A program made the translations under genes and the position numbers. 64,000 bases of DNA, taken from the NCBI RefSeq assembly GCF_988243305.1, contig NZ_OZ547136.1. One strand, 5' to 3'. Positions 6,119 through 13,696 of this stretch are shown here, in pieces (positions within the stretch are counted from its first letter, which is position 1; each line of letters begins with the position of its first letter). Under the pieces are notes generated by a model. That model searched no databases. It saw only the letters and a program-made list of their open reading frames with translations, and was not told the DNA's origin.

Positions 6119-7015
<897 letters not shown>

Positions 7016-7033: not shown

Positions 7034-7843
7034 TCACCCCTGCAATATTTTGTCCATCACGCGCCCCGGCAGCAGGCGCTTAAGCACCATTACTGCCCAG
7101 GTCACCAGCGTTACCGGATAGCGCATCTTCGGTTTCTCGCTAATAAAAGCATGGCGTACTTTGTCGACCACCGCTTCCGGTCCCAACGTAAAGCGGGCGG
7201 CGATGCCAGGATTTTCGACTGGTTTATCACTTTGCGTCTGGTTGACGTTGTCGGTGAAGCGAGTACGAATGGGACCGGGTTCGATCAGGCTAACTTTAAC
7301 TCCGCTGTGGCGCAGCTCCATGCGCAGCGCATCCGACCACGCCTCCAGCGCATATTTACTGGCCGCGTAAGCGCCACGACCCGGCGTGGAGATTAATCCC
7401 ATCACCGATGAGGTCATCACAATACGTCCTTCACCGTGCGGTAACATCGCGGGTAACAGGCGCATGGTGAGCTGGTGTGCGCCGAAAAAGTTGGCGGAAA
7501 ACTGCTGTTCCATCTGCGCACGGCTGATGGTGGAAAGGGGGCCATACATGCCGAATCCGGCATTGTTAAAGATCCCATACAGACAATTATCGGTCAGGGC
7601 GATCACTTCGTCGGCTGCGCGATCAACACTTTCTGGCGAATCCAGATCGATCAACACGCCGGTAAATCCCATGCTGTTCATGCGCTCAACATCATCCGCT
7701 TTCCGGCAACCTGCCAGCACATGAAAACCCTGGCGTTTTAATTCGAGCGCGCTTTCCAGGCCAATTCCACTGGAACATCCGGTAATTAAGACCGATTTTT
7801 GCATAACTTTACCTGTCAGGATCTCCGTTGCTTTATGAGTCAT
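7034..7843 (-). CDS. ybbO: short-chain dehydrogenase/reductase YbbO
   Basis: SDR motifs TGCSSGIG and YAASKYAL. Confidence 0.9.
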   Translation of the reverse strand: MTHKATEILTGKVMQKSVLITGCSSGIGLESALELKRQGFHVLAGCRKADDVERMNSMGFTGVLIDLDSPESVDRAADEVIALTDNCLYGIFNNAGFGMYGPLSTISRAQMEQQFSANFFGAHQLTMRLLPAMLPHGEGRIVMTSSVMGLISTPGRGAYAASKYALEAWSDALRMELRHSGVKVSLIEPGPIRTRFTDNVNQTQSDKPVENPGIAARFTLGPEAVVDKVRHAFISEKPKMRYPVTLVTWAVMVLKRLLPGRVMDKILQG

Positions 7844-8459
7844 GATTTACTAAAGGCTGCAACTGCTTCGCCATCCAGTCGGCAATAAACGGCTGGGCGT
7901 CGCGGTTGGGATGAATACCGTCATCCTGCATCCATTGTGGTTTGAGGTAGACCTCTTCCATAAAAAAGGGCAGCAGCGGAACATCAAACTCTTTGGCGAG
8001 TTTGGGGTAAATGGCGCTAAAGGCTTCATTATAACGGCGACCATAGTTTGCAGGCAGACGTATTTGCATTAACAATGGTTCAGCGTTGGCGGCTTTGACA
8101 TCCTGCAAAATCTGGCGCAGCGTTTGCTCGGTTTGTTGTGGCTGAAAACCACGCAAACCGTCATTGCCGCCCAGTTCTACCAGCACCCAGCGCGGCTGAT
8201 GCTGTTTCAGCAGAGCCGGAAGGCGCGCCAGCCCTTGTTGCGAGGTGTCGCCGCTGATGCTGGCATTGACTACCGACGTTTTATTCTGCCACTTATCATT
8301 CAACAAGGCAGGCCAGGCCGCGCTGGCAGACATTCGATACCCGGCGCTCAGGCTATCACCCAGAATCAATAACGTGTCCGCTGCGGCGGCACGGAAGGTT
8401 AACAGGACCAGGAACAGGAAGGGCAAATGCCAGCGGAAAACATTGTTGAAGTTCATCAT
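7833..8459 (-). CDS. tesA: acyl-CoA thioesterase I / lysophospholipase L1 (SGNH hydrolase) TesA
   Basis: GDSLSAGY catalytic motif; start at MMNFNNVF (208 aa). Confidence 0.9.
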   Translation of the reverse strand: MMNFNNVFRWHLPFLFLVLLTFRAAAADTLLILGDSLSAGYRMSASAAWPALLNDKWQNKTSVVNASISGDTSQQGLARLPALLKQHQPRWVLVELGGNDGLRGFQPQQTEQTLRQILQDVKAANAEPLLMQIRLPANYGRRYNEAFSAIYPKLAKEFDVPLLPFFMEEVYLKPQWMQDDGIHPNRDAQPFIADWMAKQLQPLVNHDS

Positions 8460-9113
8460 CTTAAGAAGTCCGTCGGTCAGGGGGAGCATGAACTCTCCAT
8501 CCTCACCGGAGTTGAGCTGGTTGTCAAACGTGGCGAGACCATCGCACTGGTGGGCGAGTCGGGATCGGGTAAGTCAACCTTGCTGGCGATCCTCGCCGGG
8601 CTGGATGACGGCAGCAGTGGCGAAGTGAGTCTGGTGGGACAACCGCTACATAATATGGACGAAGAAGCGCGGGCAAAGTTGCGCGCGAAGCACGTCGGCT
8701 TTGTTTTTCAGTCATTTATGTTAATTCCTACCCTTAACGCGCTGGAAAACGTCGAGCTTCCGGCGCTGCTGCGCGGTGAGAGTAGCGCGGAAAGTCGTAA
8801 CGGAGCGAAAGCGTTGCTCGAACAGTTAGGGCTGGGTAAACGTCTTGATCATCTTCCGGCACAGCTTTCCGGCGGCGAACAGCAACGAGTGGCGCTGGCG
8901 CGAGCTTTTAATGGTCGACCTGATGTGCTGTTTGCCGACGAACCCACCGGCAACCTTGACCGCCAGACGGGCGATAAAATTGCCGACCTGCTGTTTTCCC
9001 TCAACCGTGAACATGGCACCACGTTGATTATGGTGACCCACGACCTGCAACTGGCGGCACGCTGCGACCGCTGCTTACGGCTGATGAACGGGCAATTGCA
9101 GGAGGAAGCATGA
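8427..9113 (+). CDS. ybbA: ABC transporter ATP-binding protein YbbA
   Basis: Walker A GESGSGKST, signature LSGGEQQR. Confidence 0.9.
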   Translation: MPAENIVEVHHLKKSVGQGEHELSILTGVELVVKRGETIALVGESGSGKSTLLAILAGLDDGSSGEVSLVGQPLHNMDEEARAKLRAKHVGFVFQSFMLIPTLNALENVELPALLRGESSAESRNGAKALLEQLGLGKRLDHLPAQLSGGEQQRVALARAFNGRPDVLFADEPTGNLDRQTGDKIADLLFSLNREHGTTLIMVTHDLQLAARCDRCLRLMNGQLQEEA

Positions 9114-11524
9114 TTGCACGTTGGTTCTGGCGCGAATGGCGTTCGCCGTCGCTATTAATTGTCTGGCTGGCGCTAAGCCTGGCGGTGGCCTGCGTGCTGG
9201 CGCTGGGCAATATCAGCGATCGCATGGAGAAGGGCTTAAGCCAACAAAGCCGGGAGTTTATGGCGGGCGATCGGGCGTTGCGCAGTTCGCGCGAAGTGCC
9301 GCAAGCGTGGCTGGAGGAAGCGCAAAAGCGCGGCCTGAAAGTCGGCAAGCAGCTGACTTTCGCCACCATGACATTTGCAGGCGACACACCGCAGCTGGCG
9401 AACGTCAAAGCGGTGGATGATATCTACCCGATGTATGGCGATCTGCAAACTAATCCCCCTGGCCTGAAACCGCAGGCGGGCAGCGTATTGCTGGCCCCAC
9501 GCCTGATGGCACTGCTTAACCTGAAAACAGGCGACACCATCGACGTGGGCGATGCCACCTTGCGGATTGCCGGAGAAGTGATTCAGGAACCGGATTCCGG
9601 TTTTAACCCCTTCCAGATGGCTCCGCGTCTGATGATGAATCTGGCGGATGTCGATAAAACCGGAGCCGTGCAGCCGGGGAGTCGGGTCACCTGGCGCTAT
9701 AAATTCGGCGGCAACGAGAACCAGCTCGACAGCTATGAGAAATGGTTGTTACCTCAGCTTAAACCCGAACAACGCTGGTACGGTCTGGAACAGGACGAAG
9801 GCGCGCTGGGGCGCTCGATGGAACGCTCGCAACAGTTCCTGCTGCTTTCGGCGCTTCTGACCTTGCTGCTGGCAGTGGCAGCGGTGGCGGTGGCGATGAA
9901 TCATTACTGTCGCAGTCGCTACGATCTGGTGGCGATCCTCAAAACGCTGGGGGCAGGGCGAGCGCAACTGCGTAAGCTAATCGTCGGTCAGTGGTTGATG
10001 GTGCTGGCGCTTTCAGCCGTTACCGGCGGGGCGATAGGCCTGTTGTTCGAAAACGTGTTGATGGTGCTGCTCAAGCCCGTTCTGCCTGCTGCACTACCGC
10101 CAGCCAGCCTCTGGCCGTGGCTGTGGGCGCTGGGCACCATGACAGTCATCTCGCTGCTGGTGGGGCTACGACCGTACCGCTTGTTGCTGGCAACGCAGCC
10201 TTTACGCGTATTGCGTAATGATGTGGTCGCGAACGTCTGGCCGCTGAAGTTTTATCTGCCGATTGTCAGTGTGGTGGTTGTGCTGCTGCTCGCCGGATTA
10301 ATGGGTGGCAGTATGCTGCTCTGGGCGGTGCTGGCGGGCGCGGTAGTGCTGGCTTTGCTGTGCGGTGTGCTGGGCTGGATGCTGCTGAATGTACTTCGCC
10401 GCATGACGCTGAAATCGCTACCTCTGCGCCTGGCGGTTAGCCGCCTGTTACGTCAGCCGTGGTCAACGTTAAGCCAGCTTTCGGCATTTTCGCTCTCCTT
10501 TATGCTGCTGGCGCTATTGCTGGTATTGCGTGGCGATCTGCTCGACCGCTGGCAACAGCAGCTACCGCCAGAAAGCCCGAACTACTTTTTAATCAACATC
10601 GCCACAGAACAGGTTACGCCGCTAAAAACGTTCCTCGCGGAACATCAGATAGTCCCGGAATCATTTTATCCGGTGGTGCGGGCGCGACTGACGGCGATTA
10701 ACGACAAGCCGACAGAAGGCAATGAAGATGAGGCGCTTAACCGCGAACTCAATCTTACCTGGCAAAATACGCGGCCCGATCATAATCCGATTGTCGCCGG
10801 TAACTGGCCGCCAAAAGCCGATGAAGTGTCGATGGAAGAGGGGCTGGCGAAACGCTTAAACGTTGCCCTCGGCGATACCGTGACTTTTATGGGCGATACC
10901 CAGGAGTTCCGCGCTAAAGTGACCAGCCTGCGCAAAGTGGACTGGGAAAGTCTGCGGCCTAATTTCTATTTTATTTTCCCGGAAGGGGCATTAGACGGGC
11001 AACCGCAGAGCAGGCTTACCAGTTTCCGCTGGGAGAATGGCAACGGCATGTTGACGCAACTCAACCGCCAGTTCCCGACCATTAGCCTGTTAGACATTGG
11101 CGCGATTTTAAAACAGGTCGGCCAGGTGCTGGAGCAGGTAAGTCGGGCGCTGGAGGTGATGGTGGTGCTGGTCACCGCCTGCGGTATGTTGCTGTTGCTG
11201 GCACAGGTGCAGGTGGGAATGCGTCAGCGCCATCAGGAGCTGGTGGTGTGGCGCACACTCGGTGCGGGGAAAAAACTGCTGCGCACCACGTTGTGGTGTG
11301 AGTTCGCCATGCTCGGGTTTGTTTCTGGCCTGGTGGCCGCAATTGGTGCGGAAACGGCGCTGGCAGTGTTGCAGGCGAAAGTGTTTGATTTCCCGTGGGA
11401 GCCAGACTGGCGATTGTGGATTGTGCTGCCGTGCAGCGGTGCACTGCTGCTGTCGCTTTTCGGCGGCTGGCTGGGCGCGCGGCTGGTTAAGGGTAAGGCG
11501 CTGTTCAGGCAGTTTGCGGGGTGA
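9110..11524 (+). CDS. ybbP: FtsX-like ABC transporter permease YbbP
   Basis: 804-aa polytopic membrane ORF, stop-start overlap with ybbA. Confidence 0.9.
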   Translation: MIARWFWREWRSPSLLIVWLALSLAVACVLALGNISDRMEKGLSQQSREFMAGDRALRSSREVPQAWLEEAQKRGLKVGKQLTFATMTFAGDTPQLANVKAVDDIYPMYGDLQTNPPGLKPQAGSVLLAPRLMALLNLKTGDTIDVGDATLRIAGEVIQEPDSGFNPFQMAPRLMMNLADVDKTGAVQPGSRVTWRYKFGGNENQLDSYEKWLLPQLKPEQRWYGLEQDEGALGRSMERSQQFLLLSALLTLLLAVAAVAVAMNHYCRSRYDLVAILKTLGAGRAQLRKLIVGQWLMVLALSAVTGGAIGLLFENVLMVLLKPVLPAALPPASLWPWLWALGTMTVISLLVGLRPYRLLLATQPLRVLRNDVVANVWPLKFYLPIVSVVVVLLLAGLMGGSMLLWAVLAGAVVLALLCGVLGWMLLNVLRRMTLKSLPLRLAVSRLLRQPWSTLSQLSAFSLSFMLLALLLVLRGDLLDRWQQQLPPESPNYFLINIATEQVTPLKTFLAEHQIVPESFYPVVRARLTAINDKPTEGNEDEALNRELNLTWQNTRPDHNPIVAGNWPPKADEVSMEEGLAKRLNVALGDTVTFMGDTQEFRAKVTSLRKVDWESLRPNFYFIFPEGALDGQPQSRLTSFRWENGNGMLTQLNRQFPTISLLDIGAILKQVGQVLEQVSRALEVMVVLVTACGMLLLLAQVQVGMRQRHQELVVWRTLGAGKKLLRTTLWCEFAMLGFVSGLVAAIGAETALAVLQAKVFDFPWEPDWRLWIVLPCSGALLLSLFGGWLGARLVKGKALFRQFAG

Positions 11525-11692: not shown

Positions 11693-13696
11693 ATGGGTGA
11701 CATTATATATTTACGCATTACAGGGGAGCAACAAGGGGATATTTCTGCAGGATGCGGGACGCAAGCCTCTGTCGGGAATCGGTATCAACAGGGACATGAG
11801 GATGAAATATTTGTTTTTAGTTTTCATGGAGGAGTAAGTAACACAGGATTTGGCATTAATCATCAAACGATACAATTTTGTAAAATTCTCGATAAAAGCT
11901 CACCGCTGCTGATGAATTGCATTAATAATAACGAACGATGCCGTTTTGAGTTTTATTTTTATCGTATTAATAAATATGGAAAATGGGAAAGGTATTATTA
12001 TATTGAAGTCCGTGGTGCCACGTTAACTCAGAATCAGATTATAATAAAAGAAAATGAACTTGACTATCAATATATAACAATACACTACGAATATATCTAC
12101 TGTAAGCATCTTACAGCCAATACAGAATTTAGTTATTTACTCACACCTGAAAATTATAATCGCCTTTTCCCACCGACGCTCTTACCTGTTGAGGAAAAAC
12201 CAGAAATACCGCCTGAACGAGAAATTATCCTCACCATTGGTGTATTCTTTGATGGCACAGGAAACAATTTAACCAATACGAATTTACGTATGAGTTTTTT
12301 CCAACCAGAAACCTATGGTCTGGATGTCCAGGATTTGGCCTCGTTTAATAAACAATGTATGAGCAAGCAGGGTAAAACGGGATCCGGAGTACAGAGCTAT
12401 TTGAATTACTATACGAATATTCATTGGTTGAATGAGTTGTATCATAAAGATTCAGAAATAAATGCGGGGTCAGTAAAAATTCAACGTGAAATTTATATTG
12501 AAGGAATAGGGACTGAAAATAATAAAGCAGACTCTCTGATAGGAATGGGGTTAGGAAATAATGATACAGGGGTAATTGCCAAAACTGACCGTGCGATATC
12601 ACTGCTCCGTGAAAAACTGACGGAGATTGTTATTTCTTTAAAAGAGAATAAATTAGTAATTAAGTGTCTACAGTTTGACGTATTTGGCTTTAGTCGTGGG
12701 GCAGCAGCCGCACGGCACTTTACTAATCGCGTATTTGAGTGTGATCCCGTACTGATTAAAACCATTACGACGGCATTTCAGTCAGTTGAATATTTAGGTA
12801 AACCTTCCGGGGAAGTGCAATTTTTAGGTATTTTTGACACAGTTGCAGCCATCGGAGGGCTGATGGATGGTTTTGACCCTCATGATGGTAATAACTTTCC
12901 GGTAAAAGTGAAGTTACCGCCAGGTGTGGCCAAACATGTATTCCAGCTCACAGCAATGAACGAATGTCGCTATAACTTTTGCCTCAACAGCATAAAGGAA
13001 AGCTGGCCAGAATTAAGTTTCCCTGGATCTCATGCTGATATTGGTGGCGGCTATGACCCACTGGAAGATGAGTACCTGTTTTTAAGTCGCCCGGCGATTG
13101 CAACGGTACTGGGAAATGTGCCGGTGGAAGCGACAAGCGCTTACCAAAAAGCAGCACAGCAGGCAGAGTTATTGTGGCGCTATTCGACGCTGGCTCCGAT
13201 TCTGCCTTCTGGTGTCCTAAAAATTGAATCCAATATTGATGAAATAGCGTCGCCTGACCACTTAGGTAATGTGAGAAAACGGGTCGCTGCAGCGGTGACA
13301 TTTCGCAGAACGATCACCAATGACTGGTCAAAGATTGCGTTAAGAGTAATGTATGAAGTCGCTAAAGAGGCAGGGGTAGTATTTGATGCCATTTCTGTTG
13401 CTGATAAGGAATTAAAAGTTCCCAGTCATTTAAAGGTAATATGTGAAAAAGCAATTTCTCAGGGTAAAGCCGTTCTCTTGTGTACAGCGCCGATACCTTT
13501 TTCTGATGATGAGCTTAAAACCATTGGAAAATATATACACTGCTCTTCCAACTGGAATACCGTCGATTATCGATTAAAAAATAAGGTGTCTGCTGAAGTA
13601 TCAGCGTTTAAGACGTTTAGTTTTGTTAATCGGCCGGATGAAAATTGGACCAGAACTATATACGATATGCAAGGGAATAAACAAAATGGAATTTAA
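11693..13696 (+). CDS. Hcp-domain / DUF2235 (Tle1-like phospholipase) fusion protein, putative T6SS-delivered effector
   Basis: 667-aa ORF. Residues 1-~150 align with Hcp (IYLRITGEQQGDISAGCG...GHEDE...SPLLMNCI); FFDGTGN at residues 185-191; GFSRG (GxSxG) with Ser334; FDTVAAIG and HADIGGGY motifs; AT-rich relative to flanks. Confidence 0.8.
   Translation: MGDIIYLRITGEQQGDISAGCGTQASVGNRYQQGHEDEIFVFSFHGGVSNTGFGINHQTIQFCKILDKSSPLLMNCINNNERCRFEFYFYRINKYGKWERYYYIEVRGATLTQNQIIIKENELDYQYITIHYEYIYCKHLTANTEFSYLLTPENYNRLFPPTLLPVEEKPEIPPEREIILTIGVFFDGTGNNLTNTNLRMSFFQPETYGLDVQDLASFNKQCMSKQGKTGSGVQSYLNYYTNIHWLNELYHKDSEINAGSVKIQREIYIEGIGTENNKADSLIGMGLGNNDTGVIAKTDRAISLLREKLTEIVISLKENKLVIKCLQFDVFGFSRGAAAARHFTNRVFECDPVLIKTITTAFQSVEYLGKPSGEVQFLGIFDTVAAIGGLMDGFDPHDGNNFPVKVKLPPGVAKHVFQLTAMNECRYNFCLNSIKESWPELSFPGSHADIGGGYDPLEDEYLFLSRPAIATVLGNVPVEATSAYQKAAQQAELLWRYSTLAPILPSGVLKIESNIDEIASPDHLGNVRKRVAAAVTFRRTITNDWSKIALRVMYEVAKEAGVVFDAISVADKELKVPSHLKVICEKAISQGKAVLLCTAPIPFSDDELKTIGKYIHCSSNWNTVDYRLKNKVSAEVSAFKTFSFVNRPDENWTRTIYDMQGNKQNGI

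Follow-up and report, generated by a model that had tools for sequence, protein, structure and literature searches.

Among the closest described counterparts of the locus analysed here is the E. coli gene pair whose products act in the YbbAP-TesA machine, a type VII ABC transporter-lipid hydrolase complex in which TesA is periplasmic (PLoS Biol 2025, PMC12646458; PDB 9GE6-9GE8). That paper notes the partial overlap of the two operons. The proteins are the same as those encoded here; the passages of the paper that we matched do not analyse start codons, frame register, constraint or promoters, and its searchable main text does not contain the terms 'promoter', 'start codon' or 'signal peptide' (0 occurrences of each). 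At the level of transcripts, the ExcludonFinder survey (NAR 2025, PMC12288877) lists tesA-ybbA among 16 divergent excludons detected in half or more of 58 RNA-seq data sets of MG1655. The geometry of facing promoters suggested below fits this class; excludons are, however, defined by overlap of transcripts, which mostly spans an intergenic region (in E. coli 95 nt on average), whereas here the coding sequences themselves overlap. Among overlaps of coding sequences the divergent orientation is the rarest, accounting for about 1% of the well-characterised cases (457 of 42,055), and the long (>60 bp) divergent overlaps examined in the same survey were all 5' misannotations (Palleja et al. 2008, PMC2478687). 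The tesA-ybbA overlap differs from these in being short (30 nt) and in surviving a comparison with orthologues from 80 species. The overlap itself is already known: it can be found in the K-12 reference annotation, in the 2025 structure paper and in the ExcludonFinder list. What we add is the identity of the conserved start codon, an estimate of how strongly the dual coding constrains the sequence, and a candidate promoter of tesA within ybbA.

The window is a stretch of 64,000 nucleotides from contig NZ_OZ547136.1 (assembly GCF_988243305.1), and all positions refer to it. The species is E. coli, a strain other than K-12: a 501-nt query (8200-8700) was 100% identical to strain 118UI, and matches of at least 95% identity, invariably annotated as tesA and ybbA, were present in 5,418 of 5,426 complete E. 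coli genomes. The ybbA reading frame (228 codons, N-terminal translation MPAENIVEVHHLKKSVGQGEHELSILTGVELVVKRGETIALVGESGSGKST) opens at ATG 8427-8429 on the plus strand, the earliest start codon past the in-frame stop upstream of the gene. The tesA reading frame on the minus strand (8489..7833, 218 codons, N-terminal translation MLPLTDGLLKMMNFNNVFRWHLPFLFLVLLTFRAAAADTLLILGDSLSAG) offers four in-frame candidate starts, ATG 8489, ATG 8459, ATG 8456 and TTG 8426, and the annotations differ in their choice. In K-12 MG1655 (NC_000913.3) tesA (b0494) occupies 519139..519765 and ybbA (b0495) 519733..520419, which gives a 33-nt overlap identical to that in the window; the locus and the start codons (the equivalents of 8459 and 8427) are the same, and there is no biological difference between the two. 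PGAP starts tesA of strain 118UI from the second ATG (207 aa, 30-nt overlap), and in O157 Sakai (NC_002695.2) the gene starts from TTG (197 aa), so that tesA and ybbA abut without any overlap. The lengths of TesA in protein databases (194-197, 204-209 and 218 aa) mirror these differing choices. An earlier note, made from the letters of this DNA, had named the two genes tesA and ybbA, in agreement with the annotations and with the solved structures of YbbA and mature TesA. It had also pointed out that the overlap depends on the choice of start codon and that the tesA frame extends to 8489, as is seen in the ORF translation. The coordinates of the features discussed below are collected in the table.

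Table. Features of the tesA-ybbA locus, in positions of the window
Feature	Position	Strand	Remarks
tesA CDS (thioesterase I / protease I / lysophospholipase L1)	7833..8459	-	ATG 8459 according to the K-12 annotation; ATG 8456 conserved in all species
ybbA CDS (ATPase of the type VII ABC transporter YbbAP)	8427..9113	+	ATG 8427 appears to be the only feasible start
Head-to-head coding overlap	8427..8456 (30 nt)	both	extends to 8459 (33 nt) under the K-12 annotation
Upstream in-frame ATG, 218-aa TesA	8487..8489	-	not conserved as a start
ybbA Shine-Dalgarno sequence AGGAAGGG	8416..8423	+	in the tesA signal-peptide codons LPFLF; -7.0 kcal/mol
tesA translation-initiation region / proximal 5' UTR (putative)	8457..8482	-	ybbA codons 11-18; weak SD GACGGA at 8474-8469
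Candidate sigma-70 promoter of tesA	8499..8527	-	ybbA codons 24-34; frozen wobble sites
Nearest published plus-strand TSS, weak	~8085	+	Cappable-seq; ~342 nt upstream of the ybbA ATG, antisense to tesA; approximate

The start of ybbA leaves little room for choice. All 79 loci with an intact ybbA frame have the ATG (MPAEN...), which is in most of them the earliest start past an in-frame stop, and bases 8427-8429 do not vary in any of the 81 aligned sequences. The stretch from 8427 up to the Walker A motif contains no other canonical start. We rejected ATT (Ile6) and other downstream codons as starts, none of them lying at a workable distance from the Shine-Dalgarno sequence and the homology of YbbA to the nucleotide-binding domains of LolD, MacB and MJ0796 beginning at residues 6-9. 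These observations argue that ybbA initiates at ATG 8427, its only feasible start. The N-terminus of the protein is then (M)PAENIVEVHHLK, and the YbbA structures 9GE6-8 carry MPAENIVEV behind a tag. The overlap covers residues 1-10 of YbbA, and its N-terminus, MPAENIVEVHH, leads into the first beta-strand of the ATPase. Both reading frames encode real proteins, as structures are available for YbbA (9GE6-8) and for TesA (1IVN, 9GE8_T).

For tesA we compared the locus from 80 other Enterobacteriaceae species (TesA identity 86-100%), which together with the window gave 81 sequences; the start candidates were read in both frames and then column by column in the alignment. ATG 8456 showed no variation in the 81 sequences and is the only tesA start codon common to all species, despite occupying a wobble site of ybbA. 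The adjacent codon 8459 reads ACG in 16 of the 81 sequences (Enterobacter, C. koseri, Kosakonia and Silvania), and Salmonella TesA proteins begin with MNFNT. As no other tesA start codon is common to all species, the overlap that is conserved runs from 8427 to 8456 (30 nt). The comparison thus points to ATG 8456 as the initiation codon of tesA, to which E. coli may add the neighbouring ATG 8459. The 33-nt overlap that the earlier note had counted from 8459 matches the K-12 annotation, but only 30 nt of it are conserved; the expectation that the overlap is probably conserved was borne out in the 80 species, in which the ybbA ATG and tesA ATG 8456 are invariant. The supplements of TRAINSPOTTER contained no entry for tesA or ybbA initiation sites.

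The two frames are codon-aligned in antisense, codon position 1 of tesA being opposite position 3 of ybbA, so that the wobble base of each gene faces the first codon base of the other. The ybbA ATG is the complement of the His11 codon of TesA (CAT), and the ATG-ATG of tesA is the complement of the codons for His10-His11 of YbbA. In the 80-sequence alignment third positions had a mean entropy of 0.96 bit in tesA and 0.94 bit in ybbA, whereas in the ten codons that each gene contributes to the overlap it was 0.14 bit. Third positions of low entropy made up 8 of 10 in the overlapping part of tesA as opposed to 19 of 188 in the rest of the gene (Fisher p = 1.6e-6), and 15 of 18 between 8427 and 8482 in ybbA as opposed to 9 of 194 elsewhere in the gene (Fisher p = 2.6e-14). 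Synonymous variation is therefore suppressed in both overlapping frames, as expected under dual coding constraint. Where changes do occur they can be coupled: in the Klebsiella/Raoultella group paired changes at 8445/8444 alter TesA from NN to KY together with YbbA from IV to IL. Frozen wobble positions and coupled substitutions of this kind fit the earlier claim that the overlap constrains both N-termini. In our view the comparative data settle that an overlap of at least 30 nt is genuine.

Signal peptides of the Sec pathway have a charged n-region, a hydrophobic core and an A-X-A cleavage site. By inspection, TesA has all of these as well as a known mature N-terminus: its translation reads MNFNNVFRWH (with Arg8), LPFLFLVLLTF and RAAAA, followed by ADTLL. 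Mature TesA begins with ADTLLILG, codons 1-26 of the 208-aa form corresponding to the Sec signal peptide; the PDB chains 1IVN and 9GE8_T begin with ADTLL, that is with residue 37 of the 218-aa reading frame or residue 27 of the 208-aa form. The shared bases encode, on the tesA strand, MMNFNNVFRWH, the n-region of the signal peptide. As mature TesA starts with ADTLL, the codons shared with ybbA fall in the part that is cleaved off. It must be noted that the N-terminus of the mature protein is uninformative on the initiator codon.

There is no intergenic DNA between the two genes, thus both promoters must lie within coding sequence. On the tesA side, the wobble sites of ybbA between 8457 and 8482 are frozen at 6 of 8 positions (vs. 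9 of 194 in the rest of the gene), the frozen run reaching 8480; this is consistent with a tesA translation-initiation region in this segment, with a Shine-Dalgarno pairing predicted to be weak (-3.2 kcal/mol). Between this segment and a second frozen block lie five wobble sites that vary (8483-8497). The second block is found at 8498-8528, and in it 8 of 11 sites are frozen as compared to the same 9 of 194 (Fisher p = 5e-8). It contains what may be a sigma-70 promoter for tesA: a TTGACA -35 element (8527-8522) matching the consensus at 6 of 6 positions, a 17-nt spacer, and a GAGGAT -10 element (8504-8499), which matches at only 3 of 6 positions, including the A at position 2 and the T at position 6, and reads AAGGAT in most species. 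The TSS predicted from this arrangement lies at ~8493-8489. TTGACA and the -10 motif are found as a pair also in the 70%-identity homologue (L084). A generic scan of 7600-9200 for sigma-70 promoters and terminators returned no promoter-like site, and we ascribe its missing the candidate to the 3/6 match of the -10 element, which falls short of the threshold of the scan. The Rfam search of 7600-9300 returned no RNA family, and the predicted fold of the tesA 5' region (-11.7 kcal/mol for 93 nt) is unremarkable. With the candidate located in ybbA codons 24-34, the earlier proposal that each promoter sits within the partner gene agrees with the lack of intergenic DNA and, for tesA, gains a candidate site.

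The published record contains a trace of the same element. Table S1 of the RegulonDB TSS study (Mendoza-Vargas et al. 2009, PMC2760140) names gccaCGTTTGACAacca, a 17-mer, as the -35 box belonging to a tesA TSS for which there is one 454 read, and this 17-mer is unique in the window, at 8518-8534. The tesA row of that table is internally inconsistent: it prints '-315', which does not agree with its own -35 box, and we used only the box assignment. The TF-site table of the same paper back-calculates to window position 7518, inside ybbO, which equals the left end of tesA minus 315. We therefore treat '-315' as an error of strand handling and have not taken it for a mapped TSS.

On the ybbA side the Shine-Dalgarno sequence is embedded in tesA, and the tesA wobble sites around it (8403-8424) are partly frozen (4 of 9). 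Judged by wobble conservation, there was nothing conspicuous inside tesA beyond the 24 nt proximal to the ribosome-binding site that would look like the footprint of a ybbA promoter. To place published start sites we used an offset between versions 2 and 3 of U00096 that we take to be 776. The nearest plus-strand TSS then falls at ~8085 of the window. A pair of elements, TTTGCA-18-AACAAT, upstream of this TSS was considered as a ybbA promoter and rejected; the match exists but is not conserved. The TSS in question is U00096.2 518615 (score 2.45) of the Cappable-seq GFF (PMC4782308), which in the part of the plus strand covered also has weak TSSs at 518168 and 518388, none of them closer to ybbA, and no further plus-strand TSS up to 523635. 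A published 5' RACE with a dedicated ybbA primer gave no ybbA product, the supplements of SMRT-Cappable-seq had no tesA or ybb entries, and the supplement of Romero 2014 yielded no match for this locus. An inhibitor of LolCDE was reported to induce ybbA about 4-fold, and tesA was not listed among the induced genes (PMC5105897). In view of this induction it is possible that ybbA relies on a stress-dependent promoter of non-consensus sequence.

It is instructive to look at the arrangement outside Enterobacteriaceae. Seven distant relatives of TesA (41-70% identity) were sampled from an exhaustive HMMER search, and their contigs were fetched. In all seven, gammaproteobacteria like E. coli, tesA is divergent from a ybbA-ybbP pair, with spacings between an overlap of 33 nt and a gap of 55 nt. 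The 33-nt overlap was found in the relative with 70% identity (L084), an overlap of 2 nt (CATG) in a cluster of Vibrio astriarenae/agarivorans (L085), and one of 8 nt, as called, in Wenzhouxiangella (L089). In one relative the spacing between the start codons is 0 nt (L091), in two others the genes are separated by 21 nt (L092) and 25 nt (L090), and in the two Kangiellaceae (L087 and L088) by 52-55 nt. Since the divergent order of tesA and ybbA-ybbP occurs in every distant relative sampled, the tight linkage must be old, and the 30-nt coding overlap appears to be the enterobacterial extreme of this old and very tight linkage.

The reading that in our opinion very probably applies is that of an evolutionarily fixed head-to-head overlap of two real coding genes, in which the ribosome-binding site and promoter of each gene are embedded in the partner. 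The first 10-11 codons of tesA and ybbA would be encoded by one segment of 30-33 bp, each gene using a different strand, with the codons aligned in antisense. The ybbA Shine-Dalgarno sequence would lie in the signal-peptide codons of tesA, and the tesA 5' UTR with the candidate TTGACA-17-GAGGAT promoter in codons 11-34 of ybbA, so that the two transcription units would overlap at their 5' ends, as the analysis of RNA-seq data has reported. The arrangement would represent the extreme of an old and very tight linkage, in divergent orientation, of tesA with ybbAP; the proteins of the two units assemble into one complex. This reading has to be weighed against two others, which place the start of tesA elsewhere. 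If tesA truly started at TTG 8426, its precursor would have 197 residues, the coding sequences would abut, and the overlap would be an artefact of annotation. This start is annotated in NC_002695.2, many database entries of 194-197 aa follow the same choice, and the misannotated divergent overlaps in the survey of Palleja et al. are a general warning; those, however, exceeded 60 bp, whereas the overlap here is 30 nt. Unlike the start codons that create the overlap, TTG 8426 is not conserved in the 81 sequences: about 14 of them have TGG, CTG or GTG instead, and about 10 are left without a start codon at this place. The Shine-Dalgarno pairing of TTG 8426 is merely -1.5 kcal/mol, the signal peptide, MPFLFLVLLTFRAAAA, would by inspection lack a charged n-region, and the invariance of the upstream ATG 8456, located on a ybbA wobble site, also speaks against it. 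We regard an artefact of this sort as extremely improbable. The overlap would conversely be longer (63 nt) if tesA started at ATG 8489 and encoded 218 residues, with the conserved GAGGATGGAG serving as Shine-Dalgarno sequence and not as -10 element. The pairing of this sequence (-8.4 kcal/mol) is the strongest of all candidates, a canonical start (ATG, GTG or TTG) occupies the codon in 72 of the 81 sequences, and TesA forms of 218 aa are present in some databases. Yet base 8489 (A42/G27/C9/T3, 1.55 bit) is among the most variable sites of the region, and the next three codons vary freely. The codon is CTG in 9 of the 81 sequences, and at least six of those nine loci lack any start codon in the in-frame extension upstream: four (L012, L038, L060 and L063) have an in-frame stop directly upstream, and two (L052 and L082) have one further upstream with no start in between. 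An n-region of 21 residues with an Asp among them would not be typical, this reading leaves the invariant TTGACA, located 17 nt before the GAGGAT block, without an explanation, and if the predicted TSS is correct, ATG 8489 would be leaderless or outside the mRNA. A start at 8489 thus seems very unlikely to us. It must be noted that the candidate -10 block overlaps the strong Shine-Dalgarno-like sequence of ATG 8489. In many species the tesA frame stays open for hundreds of nucleotides antisense to ybbA; we did not accept this as evidence of a longer TesA, the starts in this extension being unconserved. Stop codons in a codon-aligned antisense frame are complements of rare Leu and Ser codons, and the long open frame is therefore uninformative.

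Given the fixed overlap of two real genes, the question arises whether the overlap is itself a regulatory device. Our working view is that it is a locked-in by-product of the loss of spacer between functionally linked units, and that mutual transcriptional or antisense interference is a possible secondary consequence. Alternatively, the overlap could have been selected as a divergent excludon, with face-to-face promoters and complementary 5' mRNA ends, which would set tesA-ybbO against ybbAP or tune the TesA:YbbAP ratio by interference and RNase III. The listing of tesA-ybbA among the divergent excludons of E. coli (PMC12288877) is in line with this, the listing being a call from RNA-seq coverage. 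The candidate tesA promoter lies ~70-100 bp past the ybbA start codon, so that the tesA and ybbA transcripts must cross if it is used. The response to the LolCDE inhibitor, in which ybbA and not tesA was found among the induced genes, suggests that the two units are not simply co-regulated. Near-zero spacing is kept across distant gammaproteobacteria, but as the values range between -33 and +55 nt, it is not the overlap of coding sequences as such that is conserved. Both genes appear to be weakly transcribed, the TSS calls being weak or absent, and the cooperation of TesA and YbbAP in one complex argues against mutually exclusive expression. Taken together we find selection for such a device rather doubtful. 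A broader form of the idea, which we consider unlikely, is that the near-zero or negative distance of tesA from ybbAP, seen from Enterobacteriaceae through Vibrio and Kangiellaceae to Wenzhouxiangella, was selected as a reciprocal switch, working through embedded face-to-face promoters by interference and by pairing of the antisense 5' ends. If this were true, the switch would set the ratio of TesA to YbbAP, for instance in envelope stress with ybbA induced, and the enterobacterial 30-nt coding overlap would be its most compact version.

Taking tesA and ybbA as two real genes with a fixed overlap has practical consequences. Three differing choices of the tesA start are in circulation in RefSeq; the annotation should place it at the ATGATG, with 8456 as the conserved codon, and use neither the overlap-free TTG nor the ATG further upstream. 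Deleting or recoding either gene touches its partner, with which it shares the first 10-11 codons. A clean deletion of tesA can remove the ribosome-binding site of ybbA, a point that affects the widely used leaderless 'tesA constructs and Keio-type deletions, and changes in codons 11-34 of ybbA can silence tesA, whose candidate promoter is probably located there. As YbbAP-TesA is one machine, these embedded elements bear on how phenotypes are interpreted. In a class of gene arrangements that surveys found to consist mostly of annotation errors, tesA-ybbA stands as a well-supported case of a real and conserved head-to-head overlap of coding sequences.

The minus-strand genes tesA and ybbO, of which ybbO lies downstream, share a short stretch of coding sequence (Table), and the ATG of ybbO, at 7843, falls within the final codons of tesA, the stop codon of which (TAA) occupies 7835-7833. 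The 11-nt overlap fits a translationally coupled tesA-ybbO operon. On the other strand, ybbA and ybbP are joined by a stop/start overlap of the classic type. The choice of the cnoX (ybbN) start is a further start-codon ambiguity within the tesA-ybbA gene cluster: the open reading frame reaches an ATG at 7009, whereas RefSeq gives a 284-aa product starting at 6973.

Table. Features in the neighbourhood of tesA and ybbA. Window positions of the Cappable-seq start sites (PMC4782308) are approximate, as the conversion from U00096.2 takes the 776-nt version offset as given.
Feature	Window position	Strand	Remark
cnoX (ybbN) ORF, 296 aa	6119-7009	-	reaches ATG at 7009
Weak TSS, U00096.2 518168	~7638	+	antisense to tesA/ybbO region
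tesA/ybbO co-directional overlap, 11 nt	7833-7843	-	ybbO downstream of tesA
Weak TSS, U00096.2 518388	~7858	+	antisense to tesA/ybbO region
Weak TSS, U00096.2 518615	~8085	+	antisense to tesA/ybbO region
ybbA/ybbP overlap, 4 nt, ATGA	9110-9113	+	ybbP start 9110, ybbA end 9113
667-aa ORF	11693-13696	+	just downstream of ybbP

The three weak plus-strand start sites might be the source of long ybbA leaders or of antisense RNAs. In the tesA row of the earlier TSS study ('tesA -315', PMC2760140, Tables S1 and S4) a -35 box that maps to 8518-8534 is paired with the position -315, and the region from which the transcription factor sites were predicted is centred on 7518, within ybbO. Such a combination suggests that the data set mishandles the strand or the coordinates of this minus-strand gene.

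Among the records compared with the window, that of L060 (CACSKA010000001.1), titled 'Chryseobacterium sp. 18061', contains an enterobacterial tesA-ybbA locus, whose TesA is 88% identical to that of E. coli. L063 from the same project (CACSJR010000006.1, 'Citrobacter sp. 18056') has exactly the same N-terminal translations of TesA and YbbA, and the DNA compared at the two start codons and around them does not differ either. The L060 assembly is probably mislabelled or contaminated. In L044 (Citrobacter amalonaticus JARDVN010000001.1), and in this assembly only, the ybbA frame is broken close to the 5' end; its tesA upstream frame is unlike that of all relatives. Most likely the cause is a sequencing error (an indel) and not a biological difference.

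Beyond ybbP, the 667-aa ORF carries a T6SS Hcp domain at its N-terminus (PF05638, residues 6-138) and, at residues 369-459, the catalytic domain of a Tle1-like phospholipase (PF09994). By its domain make-up it looks like an Hcp-effector fusion. In K-12 the equivalent position is occupied by rhsD.
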